Origin: Takakia lepidozioides
Taxonomy: Eukaryota > Plantae > Bryophyta
Length of the DNA stretch: 64,000 nucleotides
Assembly: GCA_030704615.1 (NCBI GenBank)
Contig: CM060733.1
Span: 33,232,001 to 33,296,000, forward strand
Reading direction: 5' to 3'
A program made the translations under genes and the position numbers. This document shows positions 3,840 to 64,000 of this stretch, in pieces. The notes under the pieces are model-generated. The model saw nothing but the letters and a program-made list of their open reading frames with translations, was not told the DNA's origin and made no database searches. How positions within the stretch are numbered: position 1 is the stretch's first letter; each line of letters starts with the position of its first letter.

Positions 3840-4480
3840 CTAGTTGACCATCTACCCATGCAGGTTTCTTGTAGCTATTGATCCATCTGGTACATTTCCA
3901 GCTTTGGTGATGCAACCATGCACCTCTTTGCCCTTTTCCAGGGCTGCCAGGCTTGCACACGCACTGCAAACGCACACAAACATGATGTGGTCGAACTTCA
4001 CCCTTTCCCCCATCATTTGCTTTCAGGTCTCCAAAGCCCCATCGCCCCTGCTCTGCACACCCTGCAAGCATCGCATTCCACAACACCACATGTTGAACAC
4101 TCCCTTGGCATCCTCAATGGTACCACATTTGGCATACATGGCCACCAGAGAAGTGTTCAGGATGACATCTGGAACAATTGCAGATTTGATCATGTCACCA
4201 GGGATCTCTTTGCCCTTTTCCAGGGCTGCCAGACACACTGCAAACACACACAAACCTTATGTCGGCGGCCTTCACCCCTTCCCCCATCATTCCCTCATAG
4301 GTTGGAGCCACCATCCCGCACCCCTGCTGTGCATACCCTGCAACTATCGCACTCCACGACACCACATCTCGTTCAGCCATAGTGTTGAACACTCCCTTGG
4401 CATCCTCGATGCACCCACATTTGGCATACATGTCCACCAGGACAGGGGCAGTGTTCAGAATGACATCTGGTAATCTGACA
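3840..4480 (-). pseudogene. Degenerate PLS-class PPR gene fragment
   Basis: Frameshifted pieces such as DVILNT..VDMYAKCGCIEDAKGVFNTMAERDVVSWSAIVAGYAQQG and LEKGKEI..DMIKSAIVPD, of the same family as the intact PPR at 9750-12701. Confidence 0.85.
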
Positions 4481-4494
4481 GACATTCACCTTTT

Positions 4495-4760
4495 AGAATT
4501 GTTCCAGCAAATTCCCCAACCCTACTGACTTAGAGGCTGTAGTGTCCAAAGCCATGTCCGTTTCCAGAAAATTGTCTGATGAAAATGAAGTTAGGCAGAA
4601 AACTTCCCTGGACTTGTTTCCAGTCTGTGACATGGGGGAGGACAGCATGGATGACCTCAAGGGTCTACCCACTCTTCTGAAATTTAAACTAAGGGCAGGA
4701 ATCCTACCTTTGAATAGCAAATAGAAGCAGAGAGGAAAGGGAGAGTGCAATTGCACCCAA
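4495..4760 (+). mobile_element. Non-LTR (LINE) 3' fragment
   Basis: gacttagaggctgtagtgtccaaagccatg...gacctcaaggg is nearly identical to 15490-15625, which follows an RT C-terminal fragment. It encodes LLKFKLRAGILPLN. Confidence 0.6.
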
Positions 4761-5679
4761 CTCAACTTATCACACTAGTTCCTATGGTCAATTGCATCTG
4801 CTACACTCTGTAATCTGACAGGCATTCACCTATCTGTTACCTGTTTTTGGATACTTTCCTGTTGTCACATTGGCAGTATCATGTCAAAGTCACTCCAAAC
4901 AAAGATTCACTAAACCAGCTAACTTGCAGAATTCAACATGGAAATTTAGGGCCGATTCTGATAAGAAGGAAAAACAGGGTGAAATGTGTTGGAGAAGGTG
5001 CCTTCATTAGCAGTGCCTGATTTTATCCATTGTGCTGCTACTGCTGCGGCTTCCAGTTGACCATCTGTTTCTTGTAGCTATCCTTCCACAGGGAATCATA
5101 GGTAATCTGGAGCTTGAAATCCGGGCCTCTTGGATGAATCTGGACCCACAATCTATCCCTACACTCCTTCAGCTATCCATGCATGTGTACAAATCGTCAA
5201 TACATCCTCAGCCTTGCTGCAGCTAGCAGCTGACACTGACGCCCTAACCCTACCTAAAGTAACATGTCAAAATCACTCCAAACCCACCATAGATCCACCA
5301 ACGAGCTTCTCCTCATCTATGTTATCTGTTTCTGGATATTTTCCTGCTGCTACATCGGCAGTAACTTGTCAAAGTCACTCCTAACCACCACAGATCCACC
5401 CAATGAGCTAACTTACAGAATTCAATATGCATCTCAGGGCCGATGTACACGGACGTGAAGCCTGCCTGGAAAGGAAGTAGTTTTTCCCCTGCAACATTAC
5501 CTGACTACAGCCACAAGCAGCACACACACAAGAGGTCCGTTTGGGTTCATGGTCATTCAAATCCTCCATGGGTCATGACACAAGGTCAAGGTCGACAATG
5601 TGGTGAGGGCACCTTCTTCTTCAACCTATTTCTGCCTGTTTTACCCTCTCATCAGACTCCACGCTGCTGCTGCTGCTTC

Positions 5680-6280
5680 TAGTTGACCATCTACCCATGC
5701 AGGTTGGTAGTAGATATTGGTCCACAAGGAATCATAGGTAATCTGGAGCTTGCACACCAACGTGATGCAGTTGGGCTTCACCCCTTCCCCCATCATTTGC
5801 TTATAGGTCTCCAAAGCCTCCATCCCATGCCCCTGCTGTGCACACCCTACAAGCATCGCACTCCACGACACCACATCTCGTTCAGCCATAATGTTGAAAA
5901 CTCCCTTGGCATCCTCAATGCTCCCACATTTGGCATACATGTCCACCAGAGCAGTGTTCAGGATGACATCTGGTACAATTGCAGATTTGAAGATGTCACC
6001 ATTGATCTCTTTGCCCTTTTCCAGGTCTGCCAGACGCACTGCAAACCGCACACAAACGTTATGTCGGCGGGTTTCACCCCTTCCCCCGTCATTTGCTCAT
6101 AGGTCTCCAAAGCCTCCATCCCGCACCCCTGCTGTGCATACCCTGCGAGCATCGCACTCGACGACATCACATCTCGTTCAGCCATAGTGTTGAACACTCT
6201 CTTGGCATCCTCGATGCACCCACATTTGGCCTACATGTCCACAAGGGCAGAGACAGTGTTCAGAATGACATCTGGTAATC
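5680..6280 (-). pseudogene. Second degenerate PPR fragment, a tandem duplicate of 3840-4480
   Basis: LEKGKEINGDIFKSAIVPDVILNTALVDMYAKCGSIEDAKGVFNIMAERDVVSWSAM with frameshifts. It shares both junctions (ctagttgaccatctacccatgc; gacatctggtaatctgacag) with the first copy. Confidence 0.85.
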
Positions 6281-6859
6281 TGACAGGCATTCACCTTTTT
6301 GCCTCGGTTGTCCCACCATTGGCTGGGGTCAGAAAAGTATTCATTCCACAGCTTCTCCTCGTCTCAGCTGTTACCTGTTTCTGGATACTTCCCTGTTGTC
6401 ACATTGGCAGTACCATGTCAAAGTCGCTCCAAACTATCAAAGGCTCACTCAACCAGCTAACTTGCAGAATTCAACATAACACGCTGAATGAGTTTTTTGT
6501 TCTGCTGGTAACGTTATTCCTCTTGGTTCCTGCATGACACAATTCTTGATTGAACAGAGGTCTCTTGCCTCTTTATATACCCTTAGTATCCTGAATTAAG
6601 GATTCTTTCTCTTTACCAAGCTCGTGTGATACATAAACAATATCTGCAGACAGGAATGAAACAGCTCGATGTAATAAGGACAGACAACTACCTTCTTGAC
6701 AACCTCCTGCATCAGCATCGGTGAACATGGATTGGGCACTCTATGGCGTATGCGGTGTCCGAAGACCTGCCAGCTTCACAACCAAACTAACTCAGCAAAA
6801 TGCTTACTGCCAGAGACCACCTAGCTTTGTCTGGCTCCATGTGAAGGATGCTTTCACAA

Positions 6860-9749: not shown

Positions 9750-12700
9750 CTACCAGTAATCCCCACAAGAACAAATCCCATCTTGGAAGTGGTGGAAGCG
9801 GTTGGCATCGCGTACGACCAGTGCTCGCCCAACAATCTTTGAGATGAGCTTTGTGGCAGTGTGGCAGTCACCACACACCCGAAGGTTCTTCATGATGCTT
9901 ATAGGGGTCCCAGGGGGTGTGCTAATCAGGCCAAAACAAATTGCCAATCTCTCACTATGGTAGCAAAGAGAATTTTCCTTTTGGTCCTCCTTCACATCAT
10001 GCAACACAAAGCGTGTGTCAGGAACGTATCCTGCCTCCTTCATTGGCCCCGACAATCTCTTCAGCTCGATATGGATTTCCTCAATTCTTTGATGCGATTT
10101 GTCGTCCACAATGAATCTATGTAATTGGTTGTCCACTTCAATGCAACTGTGCCCTGGTTCTTTTATTACACCTCTGTCTTCCATCATTTTCCTCACCTTT
10201 GCTGTATCGTCCCACCTGCCAGCCGCAGCATAGATGTTTGATAGCAGCACATAAGTTGCAGCTTCCTCTGGATCCGACTCGAAAAGGGATTTTGCTGCAC
10301 ATTCTGCTAACTCCACATCACCGTGAATTCTGCAGGCATTAAGCAAGGCACCCCACACTGAAGCACCTGGTTTGATTGGCATTTCATTAATTAGGACCTC
10401 TGCCTCATGCAATCGACCTGCACGGCCAAGAAGGTCCACCATGCAGCTAAAATGCTCAACGGTAGGAGTAAGGCCATGAGCCTGACTCATAGAATCAAAG
10501 TAGTGGAGGCCTTCATCCACTAGGCCCACATGGCTACATACAGACAGAACACATACAAAGGTGATACTGTTCGGCTTGAAGCCTTCCTGCTGCATTTGTT
10601 GAAATAGGTCAAGGGCCATCCTACCAAACCCATGCTGACTGTATCCTGCTATCATCACATTCCATGATACCACATCTCGTTTAGTCATAGTTTTGAACAC
10701 TTGATGGGCATCCTTTATGCTCCCACACTTGGCATACATGTCAACAAGACTGTTCTCCACAGTGATATCTGGGTCAATTCCAGATTTGATGATGTCATTG
10801 TGGACCTTTTTGCCCTTTTCCAGGGCTGCCAGGCTGGCACATGCCTTGAGAACACAACAGAATGATACCTTGTCAGGCTTCACCCCTTCCTGTATCATCT
10901 GTTCATACAACTTGAAAGCCTCTCTCCCACACCCATTCTGGGCATATCCTGCAATCATTGCACTCCAGGCGATCACATCACTTCGGTGGGCTGTATTGTC
11001 AAACACTTGACGTGCATCCGTTATGCTCCCACATTTGGCGTACATATTGACAAGGGCCGTCTCCAGAATGATATCTGGTGCAATTCCAGCTTCAATAATG
11101 TCAGCATGGACCTTTTCCCCATTTTCCAGGCCTCCCAGGCTGGCACATGCATTGAGAACACAAATGAACGTGACTTTGTCGGGTGTCACCCCTTCTCTGA
11201 TCATTTGTTCATACATCTCAAAAGCCTCCCTACCACACCCATGCTGAGCATATCCTGCAATCATCGCACTCCATGATACCACATTGGGTTTTAAGCCCTC
11301 CTGTTGCATTTGCTTAAACAGCTGCAGGGCGTCTCCAGTACACCCATGCTGAGCATATCCTGTTATCATGACATTCCATGACACCACATTGCGTTGAGCC
11401 ATGTTGTCAAACATTTGACACGAGTCCTTCATGCTCCCGCATTTGGCATACATGCTAACAAGGGCAGTCTCTAGAATGATATCTGGCGCAATGCCAGCTT
11501 TATTGATGTCAGCATGGACCTCTTTGCCCTTTTCCAGGGCTGCCAGGCCGGCACATGCATTGAGAACACAAATGAAGGTGACTTTGTCAGGTGTCACCCC
11601 TTCCAATATCATTCGCTTATACATCTCAAAAGCCTCAATCCCACACCCATGCTGAGCATATCCTGTAATCATTGTGTTCCATGAGACCACATCCCGTTTA
11701 GCCATATTGTCAAACATTTGACAAGCATCCTTCATGCTCCTGCATTTGGCATACATGTCGACAAGGGTATTTTCCAGAGTGATATTTGGCTCAATTCCTG
11801 CTTTTCTGATATCGCCATGGACCTCTATGCCCTTTTCCAGGGCTGCCAGGCTTGCACATGCCTTGAGAACAGAAATGAATGCGACCTTGTCAGGTGTCAC
11901 TCCCTCCCGCGTCATCTGTTCATACATCTCCAAAGCCTCTCTACCATACCCATGCTGAGTATATCCTGCAATCATGGTGCTCCATGACACCACATTTCGT
12001 TGGCCCATATTATCAAATACTTCACGTGCATTATTCATATTCCCGCATTTGGCATACATAGTAGCAAGGGCAGTCTCCAGAATAACATCTGGCACAAGTC
12101 CAGATTTGTTGATTTCAGCATGGATCTCTCTGCCCTTTTCCAGGGCTCGTAGGCTGGCACAAGCCTTGAGAACACAAATGAATGTGACGTTATTGGGTGA
12201 AGCTCCTTCCCATCTCATTTGGTAATACATCTCCAAAGCCTCCCTGCAATACCCATGCTTCACATATCCTGCCATCATTGCAGTCCATGTAAATACATCC
12301 CGTTCAGGCATTTTATCAAAAACTTGGCGTGCGTTCACCACACTCCCACACTTGGCATACATGTTGACAAGGGTGTTGAGTAGTAAGATGTTTGGCTTGA
12401 ATCCACTTTGAATAATGTGGGCATGCACCTGCTTTCCCTCTTCTAGAACTTTCATCTTGATGCACTTCTGCAAAAGACACACATAAGTGTCGGAGTCTGC
12501 CGGAATGTCCCGTTGGTTCAAATTGTACAGGGCTTCTTTCAGTCGTCCTGCCATACACAGAGTTTTCACATCAACACATTGTGCATGACCTTGTATCATG
12601 GCAGCTATCTCTGCTTTCACCCAAGGAGGGTTCGACAAACCCTCAATCCAAAGGGCCTCCTTTGTGCGCTTATGTCTGAAGTCTGGTGATCTTGGGCTCT

Positions 12701-14095
12701 TCTGTTAAAACGACCAGTGGGCGCTGAGCAGCCATAGCTTCAACCACAGCCTCACCTAGACCCAGCTACAACCAGCAAAGCTCCAAGCATGTACAGGGAA
12801 GAAGCTTGAGAAACCTATTTTCATGCCCTGCTAACAAGGAAGAACAACCTACTGTAAGAACCATGCTTTTGCTGCTTTTTTGAACAAAGAGCACAATTAT
12901 CATTACAGAAGCAAATGGAGGTACCGGAAAATCCACCAAAAATCATCATGCCACTTTCAGCCTCCTTCAAAATCTCCCACAATAAAGATAGCCTCACCTT
13001 GTCAAACCTGTTGTCCCACCACTGTGAAGGATCTGAGAGAAACTCCCGCCAGAGCTGATCTATGCTCATTGTGTCTCCTGCATGCAAACAGAAGTCAAGC
13101 ATAGATCTACAGCAGCTCGTGTAGGCTGAGTCTCATTGCGCAGTGGCATAGTCTCCCCAGTGGGCTTCCCATGGAAGTAATCAACTTGTTTCTCTGTTTC
13201 TCTCCAGAAATGTTCACAGTTTAACTGGCTCCCTATGTGTCCAAATGGCTCCTATGTGTCCAAAATATGCAGAGTGTTATATTATGTGTTTGTTCTGCAT
13301 AGTTTTTTTCATGATCTTTTTGGGTTTTTCAAGGACCTCATAAAGTGTTTCTCTGTCTATCTCTCCTGTTCGCCAGAATTGGGCACAGAACTACAGCAGA
13401 CGTCACATGAGTACATCTCTCTCCCTCTCCAGCTTCTCAAGCTTGGTGCCACTCATGCATACAGACATGTGTCCAAAATTTTCTGGACTGGGGACTAGAG
13501 CAGCAGTGATTTTTAGCATGACCTACATCAATCCTCCACTCCCTGAAATTGGATTCTCTTTGGCTGTGGGCTATATTTGCATGTTCAATTCCATACCCTG
13601 GTAGGTAGAAACCCCACAATTGACTCGGGACTATTTCCTTGAAGGAAGCGTCATAGCCATTACTAGCAGGACCAATCAATAAGTGCATCCCTCTTCTACC
13701 TCATTCTCCATAGGTTAGTGAATGTTGGTTTCCACTTCTCCACAACAATTGAAGGACAACAAGATTGTCAATTCCACTCATGTACGACCATAAAGTAAAC
13801 ATCTAGGACGGTCAAGGACAACATCGAGGCTGTGTTGAGAGAAGCAGAAAATTCTAAGCAAATATGCACGTCTTTTACCTTTCTCCGCTATCTCTGGTGG
13901 ATAGGGAAGCATCGTAGCCACCACTCGCACGGGTCTGGGGCCCGACAATGCCAAACTGGATACCCATATCACCTCCATGTCCTTTAATCTGTTATATGAT
14001 GTGAGGTTTTCCACCAATTCGTCGAATGGAGAAAAGGGGGGCTTTGATATAGCCGATCCCTGCGTGCTCAGGAGAGCTCCGAAGCTCTCCACCAT
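9750..14095 (-). CDS. PLS-class PPR-E1-E2-DYW RNA editing factor (C-to-U type) with an N-terminal OSB-like PDF motif; exons 14095-13879 (tentative), 13077-12998, 12701-9750
   Basis: About 21 P/L/S repeats, E1/E2, PG box (KEPGHSCIE), HSERLA, CGDCH and terminal GDYW*. GT-AG introns in consistent phase join ..WWDNRFDK|KSPRSPDFRHKRTKEALW.. to the main ORF. Exon 1 ends in phase 1, matching the phase of exon 2. Confidence 0.93.
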
Positions 14096-40385: not shown

Positions 40386-40768
40386 GGAGGTCCAAGAGTT
40401 AGAGGGGTGTGGAGCTATGAGAGACCCGAGGGTTTCATGGAGCGACATCTTTTAGGTTGTTTTTCAGAGAAGATGTTTCGACAGCGTATGAGGTTAAGTA
40501 CCGCTACTTTCAAATATTTATGTGAAGTTTTAGCTCCTCAAATTAGTAAGAAAGATACAAATATGAGAAAATGTATTTCAGTGGAGAAATTCCCAACGAT
40601 GGTGCGGCTCCGAAGACGGACAAAGCTGCAGGGGAAACTAGCAGCACACCAGTGGAATCTGACGACGACAGGCCTCAGTCCCCTTAGTTACTTTGTTTTT
40701 CGCATTTCGACGAAGCCATCGGCGATAGCCTTGCATTTTCTGCAAATGGAGTTTCCTGGTGGGTTTTT

Positions 40769-41090
40769 ATGGATTCGGACTCGTCGGAAGAAGCATCCGA
40801 GGACGAAGATGCAGCTGCAGAGTATCCTATACATGACTTTGAGGAACTGGACATTGCCGGGGAGGACAAATTGCATTGGATTGCTGCTTCCATGGAGGTG
40901 TTCAACAGAGAAGCTCCGGAGTTTGTTGTGCCGCCGGAAGCACACGCAATAGAGTTGTGCAGTATCTGCCTCCAATGTGTCCAAGTTGGAGAATATATGC
41001 GCACGGTGACAATCTGCGCACACTCATTCCACAGTGCGTGCGTTGAGACTTGGGCTCACCACAATGGCACATGCCCGCTTTACTGCCACA
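40769..41090 (+). pseudogene. Acidic tract plus RING-H2 zinc-finger fragment
   Basis: CSICL...CAHSFHSACVETW...TCPLYC follows the RING-H2 pattern, but Tyr sits at the usual eighth-ligand Cys position. Confidence 0.65.
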
Positions 41091-44000
41091 CTTCACAGAT
41101 ATTCAGCAAAAAGAGAAAGCTATTTGAAAGCTCATTATCCATATCTCTGGGAGAGAGGAATAGACATAGGGGAATCATCTGGACCTCTCACACCATTAAG
41201 GCCAGAGAGTACATCACCCGTTCATTTGCTTTCTTGATAAGTGAACAAGGAAACAGTCTCAATTTGGCATCATCGCCATTCTCATTCTTCACTATACACA
41301 TGTGCTCAAATTGGCTGATGTGTACATCAGGATCCTTTTTTCCTGCATATATTGGAAAATGTGGCTTTGCCTGTGTTGGAGGTACCGCCATCTGTGGCCC
41401 TACACCCTGCCCTCTGACAGGTGCTGGTCCTCCTATAGGTGCTGGTCCTTGAGGACCTGCTGTTGTATACCGGAAGAACCAGATTTGGATGCCACTCCTT
41501 TTTATTCTTTACAAGAAAGATTAAGGGATTTGGTACATGAAGAAGATCAGCCACGAGGGGAAAGATCTGAGGTACATCCCTGGGTTAAAGATTTGACAAA
41601 AATCTTTTATCAGAGTTGGCATGGAACACCAAGAGTAGGAACTCCAGTTTTTGAAACACAAGCCAAAGAAGGAGAGGAAGATGTGGCAGAGCCAACGGAG
41701 AGTTCAAACTCTCCAACACCATTTCAGTTGAGTTATATGAGTGAGGAAGAAGAAATCCAAGAGAAGAACTTGGAAGATAAAACAAAGAGAAGAACTTGGA
41801 AGATGAAGAAGTAGACCCAACAGTTGAGGTTGAGACTACAACCAGGACATCCCAACCTGTTGGACCTGGATCAAGTGGAGCACTTGGATCATAGGCCAAC
41901 ACAGGTGTCGGCTCAGGGGGATCAGGCAGGCAGCTTGGATCTGGCTCTGGGGGGACAGGGAGTGTGGGAAGTAATGCAACTGGAGCTGAGGGTACTGCAA
42001 GTACAGGGGGGCCAGTAGCAGGGAGTGCTCAAGGGATATATGCAAGGTTTCCTAATAATCATTTCTTAACCTGGAATGGCCTAAGTACAGCATTCCGAAA
42101 CAGGTTCAGGACAAGCAAAACTGAGGATGAAGTGTATGGGAGTCTACAACAGTTGAGGCAAAAGAAGCATGAAATTGTTGAAGAATATATGGAGAAAATG
42201 GAGTTAATGATGAAAAAGTTGGCTGTTGTACCAGCACCAGGATTACAAAAGACTTGGTTTGTGAGTGGACTAAGACCTGAATTACAAAAGAAAGTGGATA
42301 TGCTACCCCATAATATAGTAGAGAAGGCATTCGAAACAGCCAACAGAATTGAGCAATTGGGAATGCTCAAGGGAGATAAGAGGGATGATAACGACTCTGA
42401 AGATGAGTCAGATGAGGAATAAGAGCAAGAGCTCAGGAGGAAAAGCAAGAAGAAGGAAAATTTGAAGAGGGACAACTATGAAAAAACATTGGAAGAAATC
42501 TTGAAAAAATATGCCACAGAGGCTGCAACACATTGGAGAAAGGGTGTTTGGTGTGCAAAGTGCCAAAATGAAGGCCATACCACAGCTGAATGTCACATGA
42601 AGGAAAAACACTATACTATCTGTAAAATGGATAACCATTCTACTGAGAATTCTGTTATTACAATAGAATGACAGCTACAAAAGAACCCAGACAAGTGAGG
42701 GTGCATCAAGTGCAACCCCAGCCAATAAGAGACAATGACCAGGACCACTATGGTAGGCCTGGTGGATATAACAATGGTATGGCAGGAAGAGGTAATCCAA
42801 GAGGGAATTACCAAGGCAATCCCAGATGCAACTATCAGGGTAATCCAAGGGGGAATTACCAGCCAGGGAATCAGGATTATAGAAATAATCCCAGAATAGA
42901 CCAAGGGCGAGGACCCAATGGTGAACAACTGTGTTACTATTGTAACCGGGCAGGACATCGCAAAGCAGCCTGTCCATTCTGGATCCTCTTATGTTGGTTC
43001 CCAACATCCGAAGTCCAGTTTCATGAACTGCAAGGTAGGGGAAGTAGATTACTTGAAGCCCCCAAAACAACCTTGCGTTAACGCAAAGCATTTAGTGGGT
43101 TCACCGGACTGTTCTGGGATCTCAGGGTTAAGAGCACCACGATTCTACAGAAGCAGACAATCGCTATGCCACAGGCAGTGCAGCTGCTGAAGGAGCTGCG
43201 ATTGGAAGGATTGTTATGCAAGAAGTGGTCTTTTCATCATCGGGGGTTGATGATCCAATTCATTCAGAACTTTGAGCCTCAAACAAGAGTTATCAAGGTG
43301 AAGGGAGTAGATATAGAGGTTACTCCGCAGTATTTGCAACAACTGTTTGAATTACCAACTGGTCATGTGAACGTGGATGAGCACAGGGCAAGATTGCAAA
43401 TAGAGGATCTGTTCCAAGAAATGAGTTTCTTCAGGACCTAGGGATACACCTGCACCAAGGCCAAGTATCCAGGATTAAGGGAAGTTGGCCAAATACTGAA
43501 CGTTCTGTTTGCCATGAAACAGAACCAACAGTATCTTAGCAGATCTTTCACGGAGGAGGTACTGAAAGCCTTGAGAGGAGAGGATGTAGCTTGGGCGGAG
43601 ATGATGTATGGTCTAGTGGAGGAGATGAAGCGGTTACAAAATACTACTGCTAAGTCCCCGATCATTGTGTCTGGCCCAATAATTGCGCAAATTATCTTTG
43701 ACTCTTGTTTGCTTGATGCACGACAACACACGGTGATGGGAGTGTTTGAAACAGCCACAACTGCAATTGAGGAGCAAGGCTCTTCACAAGGTGAAGTGGG
43801 ATTGGAGGGGTAGCACCAGTCCAAGAGGTAGAAACGGGATGCGACTGTAGTGGCCGATCGACTAGCTACAAGAAAACCACAAGATGATGTTTCCATAGCT
43901 CTTGTGCAGGATGAGGAGCAGCAGCACAGGGGGCTGTTATTGCTGGAGGCATGGCCTTTGGAGAGGAAGGAAGAAGTTACCTCAGTATCACAGCCAGTTG

Positions 44001-45392
44001 ACCCGGTTGCCTCAGGGGTAACTCAGATTGTACATGCTGCCATACCGGAGCCTCTTGTTGGGGAAGGAGAAGGGTTGGACATCCCCACTACAGAGCAGGT
44101 AGTGGCAAAAATTGAGAAGGGTGACCTTCTCTATGAAAACTCTAGCATGGTCGGAGAACCAGTAGTACCAAAGATGAAGAGTCTGACCAAGGGAATCCCT
44201 GCTATGCAAGTCATGCCCAAACCTGTGGCGGAGGTTAAAGGGGTAGAGTACAAGGGGACAGCAGCACCTGTGGAGGATAAGGTTGCTCAGGAAGAAGATC
44301 ATGTGGGATCATGGCCTGACTGGTTTGTGAAACATCAAACTTTGGAGGATCAGGGAGAAAAACAGCAAGTTCTCCATGAAGACCCACAGCAGGCCATGCT
44401 TATGAGTTCCATAAGCAGGACACTTAATTTGTTGGGCACCTATGTGAAATCCCATGTTCCTTCCACATAATTGGCAGCATTGAGGGAGGAGCTCAAACAA
44501 GAGTTTGAGGCAAGAATTGCCACTGAGTGTGCAAATAAGGTGGATGTGGAGTAGGTAACAAGAATTCCACTGGAAGTAAGGCTTCCATACCATAAACTAA
44601 TTGGAATGGTGTATACTTAGTGGTGACTTTATATGAAGTCGTGTATGACCAACTTTGTATCCCAATCTGTTCTGTTTGCATTGACTATCTTAGCCAGGAT
44701 AGTACATAGTATTTTGTTGGTAGCGTCTGCCTGCCCATTACCCTGTGGGTAATAAGTTGTACTCTTCCTATGCACAATCATGAACTCTTTAGTCAATAGT
44801 TCAATGGTCTCACTAATGAAGTGACTTCCCTGGTCACTGATAAATTCCAAGGGACAGCCAAATCGTGTAAGTATGTTCTCATACAGGAACCTTGTTGTGG
44901 ACTTAGCTGTGTTGTCCCTCAGAGCTTTAGCTTCCACCCACTTTGTAGTATAATCAGTGAGTGTGATTATATACTTGTTCTGTGTATTCTTGGCCGGTGG
45001 GTTAATTGGTCCAACAAAGTCTAGTCCCCATTTCTGAAATGGTTCAGTAGGCATCGTAGGATGCAAAGCCATCTTCCCAGATCTCTGCAATGGTCCTAGC
45101 CTCTGACACTCATCACAACTCTTGCAATACTTGTGTACATCCTTGAACAAAGTAGGCCACTAGTAACCTGCAAGTAGTATCTTCTCCAAAATGACCTCCA
45201 ACCACTCCTTTATGAACTTCCTCCAAAACTTTATTTACTTCATGGTGGTATAAGCATCGTTTAAGTACTCCATCAGGGCCTAGCTTATACATTCTGCCCC
45301 CTACCATAATATAAGGTAAAGCCTTGATAGCGATTCTCTTCCTCTGCTCATTACCATAATTAGGTGGGCACTGACCATGAGTAAGGTAGTAT
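41090..45392. mobile_element. Scrambled, partial Gypsy LTR retrotransposon copy (gag, antisense-ORF and integrase pieces in mixed orientation)
   Basis: Segments match 46890-48815 (mostly +), 55740-57330 (inverted) and 51640-52510 (inverted integrase: KWGLDFVGP, SDQGSHF, YYPQGNGQA). Confidence 0.85.
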
Positions 45393-53185: not shown

Positions 53186-53571
53186 CAGATTACATAGTCC
53201 ATAGGGTCAGTGACAGGTGGGCGCGAATTACGTTAGAAAAGTGGCCATCAAGTGAAGAAAAAGTTTGGAGGTCAAACTTGGAGAATGTGCCACGCGGAGA
53301 GGGGAAGACGGGGGCATGTTTAGAAATGGACACGTGGCGGCTAAGGCGAAGCACACCGCGCTGCATCAATTGCAAAAGTGAGTTTTATCATGCAAGAGGT
53401 CAAATCGGGCCGTCAAAGTACCTACCTGGTACAACAACTATTACTAATTGTGGGCCCATTAATGCATTCAGTGCCAGGGTAACAGAATCCTTTTCGAGTT
53501 CAGAAAAGGGAAACCTATGCCACATGTGCTGTCCTATTGGACATTCCAGGTGGAAATGTCCATAGAGGGGG

Positions 53572-54294
53572 GTGGAAATAAGGAATTATCTAAGCAGTCC
53601 ACAGCCAATCAGGAGTGAGAATTACATGCAGGTGGTTCCCTCCAAGAAACAAGAACAAGAAATAGGAAGTGTTATGAGCGGAAGAGTCGGAGTGGCTCTG
53701 AATAGCCAAGCTCTCGACGGAAGGGGTAATCAAAGCACTAGCCTGGTAGCTATGGCAGATGTAACCGATTACACACTCGCTTTACTTCTCACGCAGTGGC
53801 GCAAGGACGGACGCATTGAGAGATTTCCGGTTCCTCAGACCCAGCCATTGCAGACTGCTTGGTCCAGTAGAGACGGATTGGACAATTCTGCACATCCCAC
53901 AATGCGATTCGGAAGAGTGAAGAGACGACACCCTCCCAACAAGTTGAATGAGACTCGGATTGCCAATGCTCTTGGGATGGCTTGCACTATTCAGAGCTCC
54001 GTGGACGTACCCCCACCCGGCCTTGGGCGTGTGTATCGGATGGCAACGGCCGGCTCGGCTGTACGCGACGATGTATACACAATTACGATTGGAGTGGAGC
54101 CGACTTGCAATTGTACGGACTTCTCGTTGATGGAAGCAAAGAAGGGTTCAAAGTATTATCCGTGCAAGCATCTGTATTACATTTACCTGAAGAGGTTGAG
54201 GATGAACGTGACTATTGATGACTTTATTCATGCACCGGCGTTGAGCGTGAACGAGCTGCACAAACTCCTCCTTAGGGATTCCAGAAATCATTGA
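53572..54294 (+). CDS. SWIM zinc-finger protein ORF within the 3' region of the Gypsy element
   Basis: YTITIGVEPTCNCTDF...YYPCKHLYYIY fits SWIM CxC-xn-CxH. The 240-codon frame is open. Confidence 0.7.
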   Translation: MEIRNYLSSPQPIRSENYMQVVPSKKQEQEIGSVMSGRVGVALNSQALDGRGNQSTSLVAMADVTDYTLALLLTQWRKDGRIERFPVPQTQPLQTAWSSRDGLDNSAHPTMRFGRVKRRHPPNKLNETRIANALGMACTIQSSVDVPPPGLGRVYRMATAGSAVRDDVYTITIGVEPTCNCTDFSLMEAKKGSKYYPCKHLYYIYLKRLRMNVTIDDFIHAPALSVNELHKLLLRDSRNH

Positions 54295-54439
54295 TGGGGC
54301 AAAGGGAATCCTCCATATGGATATTTTCAATTGCATTTTGCTATATCAGACTTTTTTTTGCAGTGTAATGAAATGCACCCCAAAACTCCTGGAATGAGGC
54401 AATATTCCATTCAAACTGAGGGGGGGGGGCCATTTCTGG

Positions 54440-54740
54440 AAAAATGGCGCCGAATTTCTCTTTTTGGGGCCGAAAACTGGCTAAGTCCCAACATGCACTG
54501 GTACCTGTGTCTGGGAAATGGCGCCGAATTTCTCTTTTTTGGGCCGAAAATTGGCTAAGTCCCAACATGCACTGGTACCGTGTCTGGAAAAATGGCGCTG
54601 AATTTCTCTTTTTTGGGCCGAAAACTGGCTAAGTCCCAACATGCAATGGTACAGTGTCTGGAAAAATGGCGCCGAATTTCCCTATTTTGCGCCGAAAACT
54701 GGCTAAGTCCGAACATGCACTTGAAAAATGGCGCCGAATT
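54440..54740. repeat. ~73-bp tandem repeat, ~4 copies plus degenerate tail
   Basis: aaaatggcgccgaatttctctttttggggccgaaaactggctaagtcccaacatgcactggtac.. repeated. Confidence 0.9.
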
Positions 54741-55089: not shown

Positions 55090-57341
55090 GAAATAGCAAA
55101 CCTCCCAGGTGGTTATCCACCAAGTCGTGTGTGGCACCCCTGAGAGTCTGCTCCTCGGTGAGCCTGTACACATCTAACCGCTGCTGTAAAGCCTCCATGC
55201 GCTTCGCATGAGGTTCAACCAAACTCGCATAGGCAGCAACCAGATTATTGGCTTCCTTCTAAGCCTTGTTAGCCACAAAGAGTTTATTTCTATTGACCAT
55301 GACTGTTAATTGCAACTCCAAGATGTACCTCTCTTGGTCAGCCTCAACCTGTCTGTATTGCTTGAAAGTATTTTCATTGCGACAGATTGTATTCTTCATA
55401 TCAACAATGAGTTTCGCCTGCTCGATTATCTTTGCCTCTGCCTTCATATATCTCTCCCCTTGTCTGTTAACTTCTAATGCAGTTTGCTCAAGAGTAGTTG
55501 TGAGTGTAGCACATTGTATGGTCATCCTCTCATGTACTGCCTGCAACTCCGTATGTAGTGCATTCATTTCTTGCAACTTGCCCTCATGCTTCACCTGCAT
55601 TTGGTATAGCTGTTGCTTATGTGCTTCATGCAACTGGTCATACTCGAGGCCGGCTTCAATCAGGTGTTCCTTGGCCAACTGCAAAGCAGCCTTTGTGTCC
55701 TCTAACTCTTGCTGTAACTTGAGATTGACCTCCTCATCTACCTTGTTAGCACACTTAGTGGCAAGTCGAGCCTCAAACTCCTTCCTGAGTTCCTCCTTCA
55801 AAGCTGCCAATTGGGTAGATGGAACATGGGATTTCACATAAGTGCCCAACAAATTAAGTGTTCTGCTTATGGAACTCATAAGCATGGCCTGCTGAGGGTC
55901 ATCATGGTGAGCTTGCTGTTGTTCTTCCTGATCCTCGACAGTGTGATGCCTCACCAACCATTCAGGCCATTGGCTCACCAGATTTTCTTCCTGAACCACC
56001 TCATCCGCCACAGGTGCTGCAGTGTCTTGATATTCTACCCCTGGTACCTCCGTCACAGGTGTGGGTATTACATGCACAGCAGGGTTTTCCCTAGACAACC
56101 GCTGCACCTCTGGAATCACTGATTCCCTTACCAAACCTGAGTTTTCATAGAGAAGGTCACCCTTCTCAATTTCAGCCACGACCTGCTCTGTAGTGGGAAT
56201 GTCCAACCTTTCTCCTTCCAGAGCAATTGGGGGTGATGTCACAGCATGTACGAACTGTGGAACCTCTAAAACAACTGAGTCAATTGGTTGTGGTGGCTGT
56301 GGTATCAAAGTGACTTCCTCTTCCCTTTCCGAAGACTGTGCTTCCAATAATAACAGCTCTCTGTGCTGCTGTGCCCCATCTTGCACAAGAGCTTGGGAAA
56401 CATTATCGTGCGGTTTATGTGAAGCCAGTGGATCCGCCACTATAGTCATACCCTGCCTCTATCTCTTAGACTGGTGTTGCCATACCAGTCCACCCTCACT
56501 GTGTGAAGAGCCCTGCTCTTCAATTGCAGTGGTTTCTACCTCAAACACTCTCATCTCCTTACGTTCCCGAGTATCAAGTATGCAAGAATCAAGAATTATT
56601 TGGGCAATGACTGGACCAGACACAATGATCGGAGACTTAGCAGCAGTGCCCTGGAACCTCTTCATCTCGTCCACCAATCCATTGTACATTAACTCCGCCA
56701 AGCGACATCCTCTCCCCTCAAAGCCTTCAGGATCTCCTATGTGAATGACCTGCTCAAATACTGTTGGTTCTGTTTCATGAAACAGAACGTTCAATATTTG
56801 GCCAACTTCCCTAAGCCCTGGGTACTCGGCTTTGGTACAAGCGTAACCTTGAGTTTTAAAGAAACTCCCTTCTTGGAACAAATTCCCTATCTGCAATCTT
56901 GCCAGGGCTGTGCTCATCCACATCCACATGTCCTGATGGCAAATCAAACAATTGCTGCAGGTACTGGGGAGTAATTTCTATATCTACTCCCCTCACCTGA
57001 GTAACTCCCGTCCAAGGCTCAAAGTTATGAAGAAATTGTATCATGATCTGCCAATGATGCAAGGACCAGTCCTTGCGTAACAGCCCCTCCAATCGCAACT
57101 CCCTTAACAGTTGTACTGCCTGCGGTGCCGCAATTGTTTGCTTCTGCATTATCGTGGTGCTCTTCACCTTGATATCCTCCATTCCCCTCACTCTCTTCAT
57201 TCTAGACAAACAGAAAGGCTTTGTTTGAAACAGCTGAAGGAAAACTTGCAGGGCACAGAGCATGAAGGTATGGTTGGCACAAAATGGAACAGGTAAGTGC
57301 GTGTAAGCCTGTGGGGCTTGCAAGTAACGAGTGAGCAGCAC
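55090..57341 (-). pseudogene. Antisense extra ORF of the Gypsy element (plant-transposon-protein-like N-terminus plus coiled coil), interrupted
   Basis: IQFLHNF..TQVRGVDIEITPQYLQQLFDLP N-terminus and a 396-aa coiled-coil C-terminal ORF (55259-56449). A second copy lies at 43000-44550. Confidence 0.7.
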
Positions 57342-57380
57342 TTCCCTCGAAATGCCGGCAATGTCCTTGCAATTCTCTAC

Positions 57381-59296
57381 TGTGACTCCGACACTCTTGT
57401 CTCCACAATGGGAATGTTGTAATGCTTTACTACAGATGGCTCGTTATGTTGCCGGGGCACGCGCCCTGTGCTCAAAGGAGGTGGCGATCTTGAACGTGCA
57501 GGACTTGCGGTGCTCGACGAGACCTCCTCGGGCAACATCACCGGACCACGAGGGAGCGTGCAAATATTCTTGTCAGCTCGCCATGAATCATCTTCTCCGC
57601 CAGGTGCCTCGTCAAGTCTTCGTCTCACTGGACGGGTATGAACATCTCCTTCCAAATGTTGGCCTCTTCGCAGCAATGGCGTGTCCCGAAGGCCCTCTCT
57701 GTCGCGCACCTCAGTTCGATAAGCTCCCCTTCAAGTCATAGTTACTCGCTTTGATGCGCGCGCCTAACTCCCAACCTGACCGCCCGGGCCAACTTGGAGC
57801 TTCGGCTGCTCACCGGGACATAACGGTCCCCCTTCGCTTCCCACTAAACCCTCCACCTATTTGGGACTAGGAGAATTCCCTTTGGTGATGGCAGTCCGGA
57901 ATAGCTCCCCACTCTTTGGTCGCTTTCCGGCTCGCTCACTTACTCACTAGTTTTTGGTCACCAACGGGCTTGCACCGTTCTCGGGGTCACTACTCCCCTT
58001 ATATATACTTCAGTAGCTGTCCGCGGGGGTTTCACAACCAGCCATGCCATTTTATGGTGAACCACCACGAAAACCCTCGACTCCCGGTGATGAGTCGCGG
58101 TGAGTCTTGGCCCACTCACTACGGCCCCTATGGACCGTGATGAGTCCCAAGACTCCCCACGACTCCCACCACGAGGTCTCCGCCCCCATGGTGAGTCCTA
58201 TGCCACCCCCACTAAGTCCCGCTAAGCTACCACCACCCCTTGTGGAGCCACCCCCACCGCAACCCGGTATGCGGGCTCCACCTAGTGAGCGCCTCCGCCT
58301 CCTTGGGTGCCTTGGGCACTCAAGGGTGCTTCAGCCCCCCATACCTATCGCTGCTGCTGCCCCCACCACAGGGGCAACCCCTCATGTGTCCCGACCCCCT
58401 TGCCCTCAAGGCAAAGGGCCGCGACACACACCCCTACCAACAGGGAGTCGATGTCCTCATCGACTTGTTCATTTTGTAGAAACGAACATCCAAGTTCTGG
58501 CGTCCCACATCAAGGAGTTTGTTTCCGTACCATGGCATCCCATGGCAAAGAACCAAACCCCACACTTGACTCTACTCTCCACTAGCTAGTTCGGCCGACT
58601 TCCTCCAAGTCCCAGCCAAGGGTGGAGCCTCTCCAGCTCCTCCTAGTGCACTCTTCTTGGCCTACTTCAAGGCCAAGGAACGATCCTCCCCGAGGATCAA
58701 ATCGCGTTACTGCAACAACATTGCTTGCGACCGCTCATGATGCCGCTTTTGGCATCACCTTGAGCAAGGGTTCCCTGGAACCCTCTTTGACTAGGAAGAT
58801 AACCTTGAACCAACCGTGCGCCCCAATCACTACAATTGGGTCCGCCTTGGAATGCTGGCCTGAGGTACGGGAACACGCCGAAGCCACACTACGACTTCGT
58901 CCCGAGGCTACACGATTATAGTACGTGAACGGAAGCACGTAGCTTCCGCGTTAGCCCGCACTACAAGGCAACCCCCTCGGTAGCGCAGTTATAGTACGCG
59001 CACGCGCCTGGTGCGCACTAGCACGTGAACTCCCAAAGAAGGCGCAAGTTTCTTTGCCCCTTGGATGGGGGTCACCCGATTTCGGCACTACGCAAACACA
59101 CAATTAACCCAATTTACCTCTCCCACTTTTATAAGCTAGCATGCATTCTACACACTAGCCAACCATACCATGCATCACCATTCCAAACAAAATAGGACGC
59201 ACAACATTTGGAATCCATTTCATTTATAGCACGTTTTGTACAATACAAGTTTTTGCGATTGGATTCCTAAGCTAGCTAAGCCGGGCTAAGCATGCA
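57381..59296 (-). mobile_element. Putative 3' LTR of the chromovirus (~1.9 kb)
   Basis: On the minus strand, PPT GGGGGAGGAAA lies just after the pol stop, followed by TG at 59296. Candidate CA end at 57381. Confidence 0.6.
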
Positions 59297-59330: not shown

Positions 59331-62175
59331 TCAACGCTTCTTCCGCTTTTGAGGTCGCCCTTCGAAAGCTGCAACCGCCTCGGATGCGTTTCCCATTTCT
59401 GAGGCACGCACCCAAGATGCCTCCACATGATGATAGCCCTTCCATTTGACGAGATACTCCGTTTCTCGGTTCCTGAACCTCCTCGACTTAAGTATTGCCT
59501 CCACCTCGTACTCCGGTTCATTTTCATGATCCAACAGCATAGGTTGCGGACGCAACACTTGATGCCGATTCGGACGCGCTTCATCTTTGAAGTAAGGCTT
59601 CAAAAGGGAGACATGGAATACTGGGTGCACCTTGCTGTTTGCCGGCAGCTCCAATTCATACACATCCTCATTCATAACCTTCCGAATGCGAAAGGGTCCC
59701 GCATACGGAGGTACGAACTTCGGACTCACTTCCGGAGGTAGTCGGAAATTCTTGATGTTCAACCAGACCTCTGTGCCTGCCTCAAACTTCACTTCCCTCC
59801 GCTTCCAATTCGCCTGCCTTTCATACCGTTTCCTAGCTTTGGCAATATTGTACTTTGCGAGCTTCAACAAACGCTCGCGTTCTTCCAATACCGCCGCTAC
59901 TGCCGGTTCCTCAACGTCCTGGGCGGCCCAACTTGTCGGCACCAGAGGTGCTTTTCCATAGACCAATACGAAAGGGGAAACTCCCGTTGCGGAGTGTTCT
60001 GTGTTATTATAACAGAACTCTGCCGCGTCTAAGTGTTCCACCCAGTCTGTTTGGTCTGCCGACACGTAATTCCGCAAGATCTGCTTCACTACGGAATTCA
60101 CCCTTTCTATTTGACCGTCAGTCGTAGGTCGGAAGGCGGTGCTCATCTTCAGCCTCGTCCGCATCTTCTTCCAAAGTGCCCTCCAAAATTTACTCGTAAA
60201 CTTTGGATCGCGGTCTGAGACAATATCCTTCGGGACTCCATGATGTTTTAAGACGTGGGCGAAGTAAAGTCGCCCTGTCTCCTGCGCCGTTGCCGTCTCC
60301 TTGGTGGGGATGAAATGGCCCATTTTACTGAACCTATCCACCACCACCATGATTGCATCGAATCCTTTTGACAGCGGCATAGCAGTCATGAAATCCATCG
60401 AGACACTTTCCCAAGTCCCCTCTGGAATTGGCAAGGGTTGTAACAGCCCCGCTTGCTTTTTGTACTCGCTCCGGTTTTGTTGGCATGTGGTGCATGTCTT
60501 GACATACTCCTCTGCCTCCTCCCTCAGTTTGGGCCAGAAATATTCTTTCTTCAAGAGTGACGCAGTGCGCTTGGCTCCACCGTGGCCCGCAAGCGGGCTA
60601 TCATGGCATTCTCTCAAGAGGCTATCTCTGATCCCTCCCTTCGGCACGTAGAGACGTTTTTGCTTATACCGGAGCAGTCCATTTTGCAAGTGGAACTGCG
60701 ATTTACCCCCCTTCCTCAAGTCTTGCATCGCGGACTTTGCCAGCTCATCCTTCCGGCAAGCCTTCCGGATCTTCCTTTGGAGCGCCGTCTCGCCCTTGTA
60801 CACCAACAAGAGCTGTTGCTTTCTACTTAAAGCATCGGCCACCACGTTGTCTCGTCCCGGTTTGTATTGGATATCCACGTCGAACACCGCCAAAGTATCT
60901 TGCCACCTAAGTTGTTTTGGGGACAACTTGGGCTGCGTGGCAAAATACTTCACCGTGACATTGTCCGTGAACACCTTCACTGGGTTGGAACCAACATAGT
61001 GGCGCCAAAGCTCAAGACAATGCACCACCGCCTTCATCTCTTTCTCGTGCGTCGGCCTCCGTCGCTCCACTTCATTCAGTTTCTTACTTTTGTAAGCCAC
61101 TGGACGTCCATCTTGCATCAGTACACCCCCAATCGCGAAGACCGACGCATCTGTATGTATCTCGAACGGACGATCGAACTCCGGGATTTTCAAGACTGGA
61201 GCTTCCGCCATCCGCTGCTTCAATTCAGCAAAAGCTTGGCAACAAAAGGTGTTCCATGCCCAGACTTTAGATTTACACAGAAGGTCTGACAGCGGCCCCG
61301 CAATCTTGGCGAAATTTCTCACATACTTCCGGTAATAGGAGGCGAATCCTAGGAAGGATCGCACTCCCGGGACTGAAGTCGGAGGCTCCTTGTCCAAGAT
61401 CGCCCTCACCTTTCTGCCATCCATTTTGATCCCATCTTGTGTAATCACATGCCCCAGGAACTCCACTTTTGTGACCCCGAATTCGCACTTTGAAGCTTTG
61501 GCATACAGCTTCCCTTCTCGCAATTTCTGGAACACCCTTTTGAGGTGCTCCAGGTGCTCCTCCTTTGTTTTCGAATACACCAAGATGTCGTCGATGTACA
61601 CGATCACAAAGTCATCCAACCACTCCTGGAAAAGGCTGTTCATCAGCGTGCTAAATGTCGCTGGTGCATTGGTGAGCCCAAAAGGCATCACCAAGAACTC
61701 ATATGAACCATACCTTGTCTTGCACGCGGTCTTCTCCTTATCTCCTTCCGCCACTCGAATTTGATGATAGCCGGAGCGCAGATCGATCCGGCTGAAATAC
61801 TTCGCTCCTGCCAACCGATCGAAAAGGTCGTCGATCCTTGGCAAAGGGTACCGGTTTTTGATAGTCACCTTATTCAGAGCCCTGTAATCGACACACATCC
61901 GTAGCGTCCCATCCTTTTTATCTGCAAATAGCACCGGGGCTCCGTAAGGTGACTTACTCGGCCGGATGTACCCCTTTGACATTAGATCCTTGAGCTGAGT
62001 CTTCAGCTCGACCAACTCTCTGTGGCTCAACCGGTAGGGCGCCTTGGTAGGCGGTTCCGATCCCGGTATCACCTCAATCTTGTGGTCAACTCCTCTTCGC
62101 GGTGGCAAGCCGCTTGGTAAATCCTCCGGCATCACATCCTGGTATTTCTCCAAAATCCCCTTGATCCAATCCAGG
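59331..62175 (-). mobile_element. Chromovirus (Ty3/Gypsy, Tcn1/Tekay-like) pol: RT-RNaseH-INT-chromodomain, frame intact, gag/PR missing
   Basis: [50 protein letters not shown] zinc finger, [37 protein letters not shown] chromodomain. Confidence 0.95.
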
Positions 62176-62384
62176 AATGCCTCGGCGTGAGCCTGGTCAC
62201 GTGAGCGCGTGAGCGCGACTGCGCTCACGCCACGTCACCTTGCGCAAATGCCAGGTCACGGGGCTCAGTCCACGTCATCACACGTGGAGGCCGAGTCACC
62301 ACGCACCCAGAAAGAAGTGGAGTGTATTCCCGCGGATTGGCACCCTTTACCGCGGAAACAAGCTGGACGACATAATAAAAGGCA

Positions 62385-62740
62385 TTGAATAAATGATGGA
62401 TGAATGTACAGTTGGATGATAAACAATGGATGAGTTTGAAAAATCTATGTAGATGGATGAATGACGGATGGATAAGAGTAAAATGGATGAATGTATAATG
62501 GATGTTGAGCAATGACAAAAATTCATGACAGGAAGATGCATGACCAAATCTTTTGACGAATGCACAAAGTATATGAAATGAGTGTGGAAGGTTTGTGGGG
62601 TGGATTAAAGAGTACAGAGGATGAATGTACAATGGATGTTGTACAAAGGAAGCTTTCATGAATGGAGCACGCATGAATACAGTGTAGATGAATGCACAAT
62701 GGATATGAGAAGAGTCAGGAAGGTTTGTGAGATGGATTCA
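62385..62740. repeat. Degenerate GGATGA(A)TG-rich low-complexity tandem repeat
   Basis: Repeated gatggatgaatg / tacaatggatg motifs. Confidence 0.65.
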
Positions 62741-63196
62741 TACATATAGCAATTTAAACGAAAGTTGATTCTGTGATTATTATTTGTTCTAAAGGAACAA
62801 CTACGGTAGAGTAAGGGGATTCAACGTTTTCCAGATAATATGAAAATGAATATTAAAAGAATACAGTTCAGTCTGACTCAGAGTCAGTACAATGTATCCC
62901 CTCTTCCTCTGCATCTAAGTCTAAGTATTTTAGAACACCGGATCCACGCTGGATACACCTACGGCTGGCCACTAAAAATCAGGGGATAGGGACTCGGACG
63001 CGTGAAGTGCCATTGCTTCGGCATAAACAGGGAGCAGAAAATTGGAAAGGGGGCTGTCGAAAACAGACTCGCCAGAAATGACTGTATCTCCTGAAGATCC
63101 ACCGCTGGCTTTCCTGAAAGACAGCCTGAAAAAGTTATTACTGTAACTTTGATGTTATCGAGAAATTGAGTATGACTCCCAAAGAGGGTTTAGCAC

Positions 63197-63771
63197 TTAC
63201 TCACATGAAAAGTCGTTGTCGACCTGCTTATCTTCGGGATCGTCATCATTTCGAATATGAATCCGATCAGTCTGTGTGCCTGAAGTGGAGCCAGACAAAA
63301 GGGGGAGGAGCACTGTGTTGTAGAGGTCAGAATCACCCTCCATACCAAAAAGGCTTCTTCCGCCTGCCTTGCATGCGTGGTAAGTTGCTCCTGCACCAGA
63401 CAGGAGAACATAAGCAGTTTGGAGGAGGGGATTTAAGCAGATGAAACTGTTGAAAGGAAACCAATTCGGAAGGGAGAAAACGAACCTGTGGACACAGAAA
63501 GATCGACCACCCGTGCAGAGCGGTGGCTGCATGACTCCAGCAGTATTTGCATGAATGCTGGTGACTTTTCCTTTGCACCTCTCCAGGGAGTGCCATCTGG
63601 TCTCTTCAGAGTCTGACTGGACTGCATGAAGTTGTACAAAATGTCATCGACATGGGGCTCATAGGGGGGGTTGACGAAACAACCCTGGTCAGAAATCTCA
63701 AAGCTGCGGATGGAGGATGGTGTCTTTGATGTGCGAATCCTCCGCAGGCAGATCGCCTCGAACATCCTCGT
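63197..63771 (-). CDS. 3' exons (63771-63486, 63390-63197) of a gene with a beta-class DNA N4C/N6A methyltransferase-like SAM-binding module; 5' part outside the window or unresolved
   Basis: A phase-1 GT-AG intron joins EKSPAFMQILLESCSHRSARVVDLSVST|GATYHACKAGGRSLFGMEGDSDLY, which parallels KP..L..LI...S..GD.VLDPF.GSGTT..AA...GR..IG.E.D..Y. Confidence 0.6.
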
Positions 63772-64000
63772 CTGCCAAAGATAGCAGGTTAGTGTGGTAA
63801 ACACAATCTAAAGTGGAAGTGTGTACATCGGCTATTCAGAACTCTGACACCAAAAAACCATGAATCGTTGATGATCGGTGTCGATCATAAAACATTCTAC
63901 TAGAGTGGAGCTGCAGAGAAAATTGAAACTCATGATCAAAGCATAAGCAGAAGGCAGACGGCATACCAGCTGACCAGGGAAACCCCCTTTCACAAGGTAG

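Follow-up and report, generated by a model that had tools for sequence, protein, structure and literature searches.

Near one edge of a 64,000-nt stretch of the genome of the moss Takakia lepidozioides (the whole stretch that we analysed, called the window here), an earlier note had read a spliced, beta-class DNA methyltransferase-like module, possibly transposon cargo of ultimately bacterial origin, that could write a mark other than 5mC. The locus raises the questions of whether the gene and its intron are real, whether the gene belongs to a mobile element, and whether a protein of this family could still methylate DNA.

Gene model

The gene is on the minus strand and has at least four exons and three introns, with its 5′ part running past position 64000:

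63967-64000, minus strand: 3′ part of the preceding coding exon, truncated at the window edge and in frame with exon A (contig X8 record 17 joins 63967 to exon A)
63772-63966, minus strand: intron 1, 195 nt, GT-AG, skipped in contig X8 record 17
63486-63771, minus strand: exon A, 286 nt, covering the target-recognition region, motif X with its conserved E-K, and the larger part of motif I, placed by the relatives and the family profile
63661-63672, minus strand: the NPPY of the earlier note, present in 1 of the 27 rows of alignment A6, the window's own
63391-63485, minus strand: intron 2, 95 nt, GTTCGT...TGCAG, phase 1, splitting the glycine codon of motif I, placed by homology
63201-63390, minus strand: exon B, with the helix after motif I, the strand of motif II and its acid (E-x-D), and an acidic linker, placed by the family profile and hhalign
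63126-63200, minus strand: intron 3, 75 nt, phase 2, donor GTAAGT, placed by comparison with the Ceratodon tail
62868-63125, minus strand: last exon, with the conserved tail motifs S-P-x-S-x-F-x-L-P-x-Y-A-E and L-D-x-x-A, placed by blastp extension against Ceratodon P0055/P0057

A phase-0 donor (GTATGC at 63966) closes the upstream partial exon, which in relatives is the exon bearing motifs IV-VIII. The position of intron 1 is occupied in the relatives L002, L007, and L009, and the intron is absent from L001, L010, and L011. Exon B was recovered by the family profile (E 2.3e-5) and by hhalign (33 columns, E 3.6e-6). The earlier note's gene end (a stop at 63197-63199) no longer holds: it falls within a GTAAGT splice donor (63200), beyond which an additional exon, from 63125 to 62868, matches the Ceratodon tail. 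A donor of this type recurs 3′ of exon B in L002, L004, L010, and L011; the acceptor at 63126 was picked on its pyrimidine tract, with 63141, 63114, and 63105 equally in frame. Retention of intron 3 would produce an in-frame TAA from the GTAAGT donor (63197-63200) and a shorter protein without the conserved tail, and the arrangement of an in-frame TAA at a phase-2 donor is also found in L002, L004, L010, and L011.

The window copy is slightly decayed. A frameshift at a T-run (62974-62978) leads to an early stop at 62972-62974, where the family frame would stop at 62868-62870; family contigs carry one additional base at 62973 in all four runs compared, as a minority of the depth in X1.

Relatives of the gene

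Exon A found 33 relatives at E<=0.001 in a search of 1.84 billion cluster representatives, and the family profile matches exon A with E 1.3e-19. Ceratodon purpureus is the sole named source of relatives: P0029 is an annotated protein of 758 residues from this species, and the Ceratodon annotation includes at least four paralogues, whose locus tags (M758_1G310400, 3G218200, 6G158200, 9G084500) name four chromosomes. The window model shares 42% identity with L001/P0076 over 119 columns, while L011 is only distantly related, at 36% over 55 residues; in a tree of exon A (23 rows, 95 columns) the window groups with L001 at 92/96, below the starred support level. The window exons alone have no match in Pfam, PDB, PHROGs, or NCBIfam, nor in a word index among longer proteins, and the family profile run against the whole window matched nothing besides the gene itself. 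Scans of IMG/VR gave no match, and tblastn against phages gave a single match for the methylase domain at E 0.1 and none for the ParB-like exon described below. Two candidate relatives were dropped: L012, which matched by chance and has no family context, and L019, whose score was no better than that of its control. L010 and L011 lie on contigs C134 and C58 of G001, in a GTDB cyanobacterial genome bin, yet carry an intron-containing plant transposon gene; the two contigs are likely plant contamination of that bin.

The 95-nt intron

The joined exons align with Ceratodon P0029 over 85 columns without a gap across the junction (41% identity, 72 bits); exon A read through instead of spliced reaches 54 bits against the same protein. 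A phase-1 GT stands at the matching codon in seven of nine JGI loci, and five of these seven have an in-frame acceptor 81-108 nt downstream by script search; as for the remaining loci, L001 is continuous over the junction and L008 was unmatched in the motif search. Between the window and one family contig, 6 of 11 differences fall inside intron 2, which makes up 95 of 575 nt (binomial P 0.004; 10 of the 11 differences were itemised individually), and of the eight exon differences listed between the window and its family contigs, five leave the amino acid unchanged. The T content of intron 2 is 40%, against 23-24% in the exons on either side. In the 27 aligned relatives similarity mostly stops just past the D-x-x-x-x-T of motif I, as expected if the intron is common to the family. 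Given the gap-free join to Ceratodon, the GT at the same codon in relatives, and the clustering of differences in the intron, intron 2 is, by homology, a real intron.

Thus the in-phase GT-AG join of the two exons in the earlier note is upheld as an open, gap-free alignment to annotated Ceratodon proteins. Its appeal to related copies and transcripts fared unevenly: the matching GT is there in seven of nine loci, but no splicing of intron 2 was seen in RNA, and the sole spanning contig guessed to be RNA, X8 record 17, has intron 1 removed, intron 2 kept, and a 20-nt deletion (the RNA nature of runs X8 and X11 is itself a guess).

The L001/P0076 subfamily, a cluster of 63 members, is without introns 1 and 2 and has a single frame of 583 residues. 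With both introns missing from L001/P0076 and intron 1 alone from L010/L011, introns have been lost or gained within the transposon gene family.

The mobile element and its insertion

The methylase-like gene is cargo of a many-copy mobile element that is inserted into a gypsy retrotransposon, which bears out the earlier suggestion of transposon cargo through a sharp element end at 62172, varied flanks, and empty-site gypsy copies. The features that define the insertion are:

59331-62171, minus strand: Ty3/gypsy pol with reverse transcriptase, RNase H, integrase, and chromodomain (Pfam), open to its stop
62172-62231, plus strand: element terminus, CAGGAATGC read inward, with GTGAGC/GCTCAC subterminal repeats, set by loose ends at 62171/62172
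62326-62336, minus strand: subterminal motif, core CCRCGG-N-N-AT, invariant in five of five aligned 3′ ends
62399-62698, no strand assigned: five copies of the 12-nt word GATGAATGYAYA in the 3′ non-coding part of the element, from a word search of the window

The ends of L001 and L009 consist of GCTCAC repeats followed by a short motif, and this pattern, searched on both strands of the window, has a single match, at the upstream boundary of the gypsy pol frame. Contigs of the sequencing runs agree independently with this terminal pattern, placing the element edge at 62172: gypsy contigs depart from the window sequence past 62171 in all four runs compared, and methylase-element contigs from X5, X7, and X6 join it at 62171/62172 with flanks that differ, while one more, from X7, joins it at 62177. 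The 3′ end of the gene lies about 700 nt inward of this element end. The core of the subterminal motif was derived from the same five aligned ends in which it is invariant, and a search with the pattern matched four of seven tails, missing L001; likewise, five of the six matches to GATGAATGYAYA in the window fall in 62399-62698, with 1.6 expected for the entire window, for a pattern that was chosen post hoc.

The X5 (1.75 Mb) and X7 (3.7 Mb) assemblies each contain several variant element contigs and Ceratodon has its several paralogues, so the family is multi-copy. No preference for TA or TTAA appears in the insertion flanks seen. We saw no transposase, second end, or target-site duplication in the window, nor a transposase in the related loci reached; we infer that the element is a cut-and-paste DNA transposon.

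Other features of the window

The window holds further repeats and genes. A frame at 53566-54294 (plus strand) that encodes a SWIM zinc finger by a sub-threshold Pfam match (E 0.002), adjoined by a 74-nt tandem repeat at 54435-54721, is probably another transposon fragment. Copies of a long, unannotated, coiled-coil-like frame, 78% identical, lie at 55259-57443 (minus strand) and 43117-44551 (plus strand), and one of them adjoins an integrase-like frame (44629-45159) on the opposite strand; the coiled-coil-like frame probably represents an additional gene carried by an LTR family. A RING-H2 finger frame at 40688-41452 (plus strand; Pfam E 7e-7) sits between frames that look Harbinger-like by eye and a retroelement gag region. 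Finally, there is an intact-looking PPR gene with a DYW end at 9750-12704 (minus strand), and degraded PPR fragments occur near it, in the vicinity of 3844-6300.

The methyltransferase fold

A search of the ESM Atlas with exon A returned PF01555 clusters in its top three places (0.90), which served as a lead. L001 exceeds the PF01555 cut-off (29.6 vs 26.7 bits), and P0076, its full-length form, spans profile positions 1-216 of 221. A family profile of 12 rows, from which bacterial rows were excluded, matched M1.HpyAVI (2.4e-5), CcrM (E 1.6e-4), and also M.BceJIV-type entries in the PDB. A structure model of L001 built from the family alignment (pLDDT 66, pTM 0.67) was used for the structure search against methyltransferases that the earlier note had proposed, and Foldseek placed CcrM first (E 1.4e-9). 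With VIA-align, CcrM again scored well (Z 16.2), but beta-class enzymes tie at Z ~15-16, N4CMT among them at Z 15.9, and these Z-scores do not separate N6A from N4C enzymes; structural matches from viruses are also beta-class. A single-sequence AlphaFold model of the Ceratodon domain (pLDDT 33) was left out of the fold assignment. The relative L001/P0076 has the permuted Rossmann fold, with motif IV ahead of motif I.

The product of the window gene is therefore predicted to have a beta-class amino-methyltransferase fold, the modelled protein being the relative L001 and not the window's own, and the class named in the earlier note stands on the PF01555 score, the profile matches, and the Foldseek result together. 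A bacterial origin of the methylase-like gene is likely.

Active-site motifs

Motif IV reads D-x-P-(E/D/N/K)-(G/D) in all 27 of the relatives' records where it was located, as 10 different strings, none canonical, from about seven subfamilies by our own grouping; the search pattern would have caught DPPY too. In L010 and L011 it reads D-V-P-E-D, and a profile alignment sets the family D-a-P-e-G against the DPPYN of CcrM. The DPPY or SPPY that the earlier note expected at motif IV was found neither in these 27 records nor in L010/L011, and [DNS]PP[YFW] occurs in 0 of the 108 proteins collected. Thus the second proline and the aromatic residue are both missing in every relative where the motif is visible. 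Relatives have motif IV some 85-100 residues before the start of exon A, so the window's own copy is off the window; we infer that it is altered in the same way. The NPPY in exon A had already been suspected to be coincidental, and this is borne out, since its site falls in the variable stretch that separates motif VIII from motif X and it is not conserved.

Other parts of the active site are retained or changed to different degrees. The first Asp of motif IV, the third-position proline, the motif X lysine, and the motif I Asp are kept in the family, as is the motif II acid (Glu) in the rows that reach motif II, among subfamilies only 30-45% identical to each other. Motif I is divergent in the window (D-L-S-V-S-T), as the earlier note had seen, and the loss of F-x-G extends across the aligned family: the leading Asp is present in 26 of 27 rows, the Phe and usually the first Gly of F-x-G-x-G are replaced, and at position 5, 13 of the 27 rows have Ser and 8 have Gly.

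In beta-class enzymes the aromatic residue of motif IV stacks on the flipped target base (PMC10406627). Loss of the motif IV tyrosine alone (Y107G) inactivates a beta-type enzyme (PMC3036652), and changing SPPY to APPA abolishes the activity of N4CMT (PMC8885841). The active site of the family is thus likely non-catalytic, judging from its motifs, and the earlier proposal that the gene could write a non-5mC mark is not supported, the second proline and the aromatic residue being absent wherever motif IV is visible in relatives. The domain itself appears to be under purifying selection in relatives, as dN/dS for one pair (L010 vs L011) is 0.035 over motifs IV-I, compared with 0.065 for the helical region and 0.15 for the linker.

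The N-terminal part and a palindrome array

L011 is apparently a whole gene, with a first exon, a helical region, a linker, the methylase-like domain, and the family tail. Its helical region is also found in L002, P0076, and Ceratodon proteins. The first exon bears a DGNHR motif, as is typical of ParB/Srx domains; its match to PHROG 1033 is weak (E 0.25), and it has no match in Pfam, NCBIfam, the PDB, or phages. An ESM Atlas search with the N-terminal 260 residues of a Ceratodon protein gave no usable match. By comparison with these relatives, the window gene may have the same N-terminal part, with a helical domain and, on weaker support, a first exon of ParB-like type. Upstream of the L011 gene are four palindromic units of 107 nt; the visible part of the element in the window contains no such array.

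Comparison with known systems

The closest parallels come from algal transposons. The Ectocarpus element Sola1-1_Ec32 has an accessory gene encoding a ParB-like domain and an N4C/N6A methyltransferase, proposed to bind and modify its own element (PMC12477816). By their described features, the two systems share an accessory gene on a eukaryotic DNA transposon, a C-terminal amino-methyltransferase domain of prokaryote type, and, in L011, a ParB-like motif at the N-terminus; they differ in the host (a moss here), in the absence of DPPY/SPPY from the relatives described here, and in the termini, AACCG in Ectocarpus versus CAGGAATGC or GGGGAGTGC in the moss family. In the Plavaka elements of Bostrychia, PAG2 combines PF01555 with SET, and PAG3 combines ParB with a 2OG oxygenase beside inverted-repeat arrays (bioRxiv 10.1101/2025.02.11.637652). 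PF01555 and ParB domains are again cargo and repeat arrays adjoin the ParB gene, as in L011, but the two domains are on separate genes, whereas relatives of the moss family have them on a single gene; no SET or oxygenase domain was found in relatives of the window gene.

The family shares with the bacterial enzymes CcrM (6PBD), M1.HpyAVI (5HEK), and M.BceJIV (8URK) the fold and the motif order IV-VIII, target-recognition domain, X, I, II. Identity is only 15-21%, however, and the family differs in its D-x-P-acid motif IV, its divergent motif I, a motif X of W-R-G-x-x-E-K in place of the bacterial H-P-T-Q-K, its spliceosomal introns, and its long N-terminal extension. Among eukaryotic enzymes, MpDN4MT1a/b of Marchantia and the bdelloid N4CMT also have a beta-class amino-methyltransferase fold, but they are active, low-copy host genes with SPPY, and the moss family is transposon-borne and without it. 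MpDN4MT1a/b are two tandem genes with TSPPY (bioRxiv 2021.02.12.428880), for which the accessible text of PMC8885841 gives no added domains; TSPPY is absent from all the relatives that we examined. The earlier note named the Marchantia N4C enzymes as a known exception among plants; here the top matches, by sequence and by Foldseek, are N6-adenine enzymes of the CcrM/M1.HpyAVI type and not TSPPY-type N4C enzymes. According to PMC4738411, N6A methyltransferases are few in land plants, and a term search of the main text of a preprint on DAM-retrotransposons (10.64898/2026.05.21.726589) found no moss, land plant, or ParB. In the literature searched, which includes few subscription papers, we found no description of a catalytically altered family of this kind in land plants.

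Possible functions

On balance, the gene probably encodes a putative non-methylating accessory protein that docks on the repeats of its own transposon and protects or mobilises it. The N-terminal domain would load onto the element's own palindrome array, of the kind seen in L011, and the methylase-like domain would retain its contacts with the cofactor and DNA and transfer no methyl group; the bound protein could then shield the element from 5mC silencing by the host, or help to hold the element ends. Such a mode may be likened to that of plant transposon anti-silencing proteins, for example VANC of the Arabidopsis VANDAL elements, an accessory protein that counteracts silencing of its own family (PMC12973397), the analogy being functional only. 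If the protein were instead an active amino-methyltransferase that works with D-x-P-acid as its non-canonical motif IV and marks its own element with 6mA or 4mC, this would explain why the catalytic Asp, the third-position Pro, the motif X Lys, and the cofactor-binding acids persist at 30-45% identity, why the complete beta-class fold is retained, and why dN/dS is so low in the domain, and a marking role has been proposed for the Ectocarpus protein (PMC12477816). We nevertheless consider it fairly unlikely, as the base-stacking aromatic residue, whose loss inactivates tested enzymes, is found in no relative, and the F-x-G of motif I is lost. Strong constraint combined with an altered active site would also suit a scaffold, namely an inactive subunit, analogous to METTL14, that dimerises with an active methyltransferase encoded by the element or the host and aims it at the element. 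Beta-class enzymes are indeed dimers (PMC10406627), but no active paralogue occurs among the 33 + 3 + 6 protein matches or loci, from searches that favour close relatives, and the family profile matches nothing further in the window, which leaves this arrangement rather improbable.

From the frameshift near the 3′ end of the window copy, the stops in several relatives, and the 20-nt deletion in X8 record 17, one could argue that the gene is a passenger in decay, which was captured a single time, is copied passively, and does nothing for the element; the persistence of the altered motif, the intron positions, and the element-end motifs in very divergent subfamilies, together with the dN/dS value (one pair) and the silent majority of listed exon differences, makes it very improbable. 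A beta-class fold and introns in a bryophyte might also recall a 4mC writer domesticated by the host, like DN4MT1 of Marchantia. The element end largely refutes this idea, which is extremely improbable for a gene within a many-copy element whose relatives are without SPPY, set against two tandem genes with TSPPY in MpDN4MT1a/b.

Implications

PF01555 matches in moss genomes should not be counted as writers of 4mC or 6mA. ParB-methylase proteins have been proposed to modify their own element in the algal papers, whose accessible text reports no test; the moss family has a strongly constrained fold and a catalytic motif that is changed everywhere it is visible, and it therefore offers a clean test of whether such cargo marks DNA or binds it, for which the annotated Ceratodon copies provide material. 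It is quite unlikely, in our estimate, that land-plant transposons carry a working amino-methyltransferase with an acidic residue in place of the tyrosine, aimed by a ParB-like domain at private palindromes and placing 6mA or 4mC on their own DNA; an active protein would bring new chemistry to the methyltransferases and give land plants a source of marks other than 5mC. As a pseudo-enzyme, the protein would be a candidate for a family-specific anti-silencing or end-binding factor in bryophytes.
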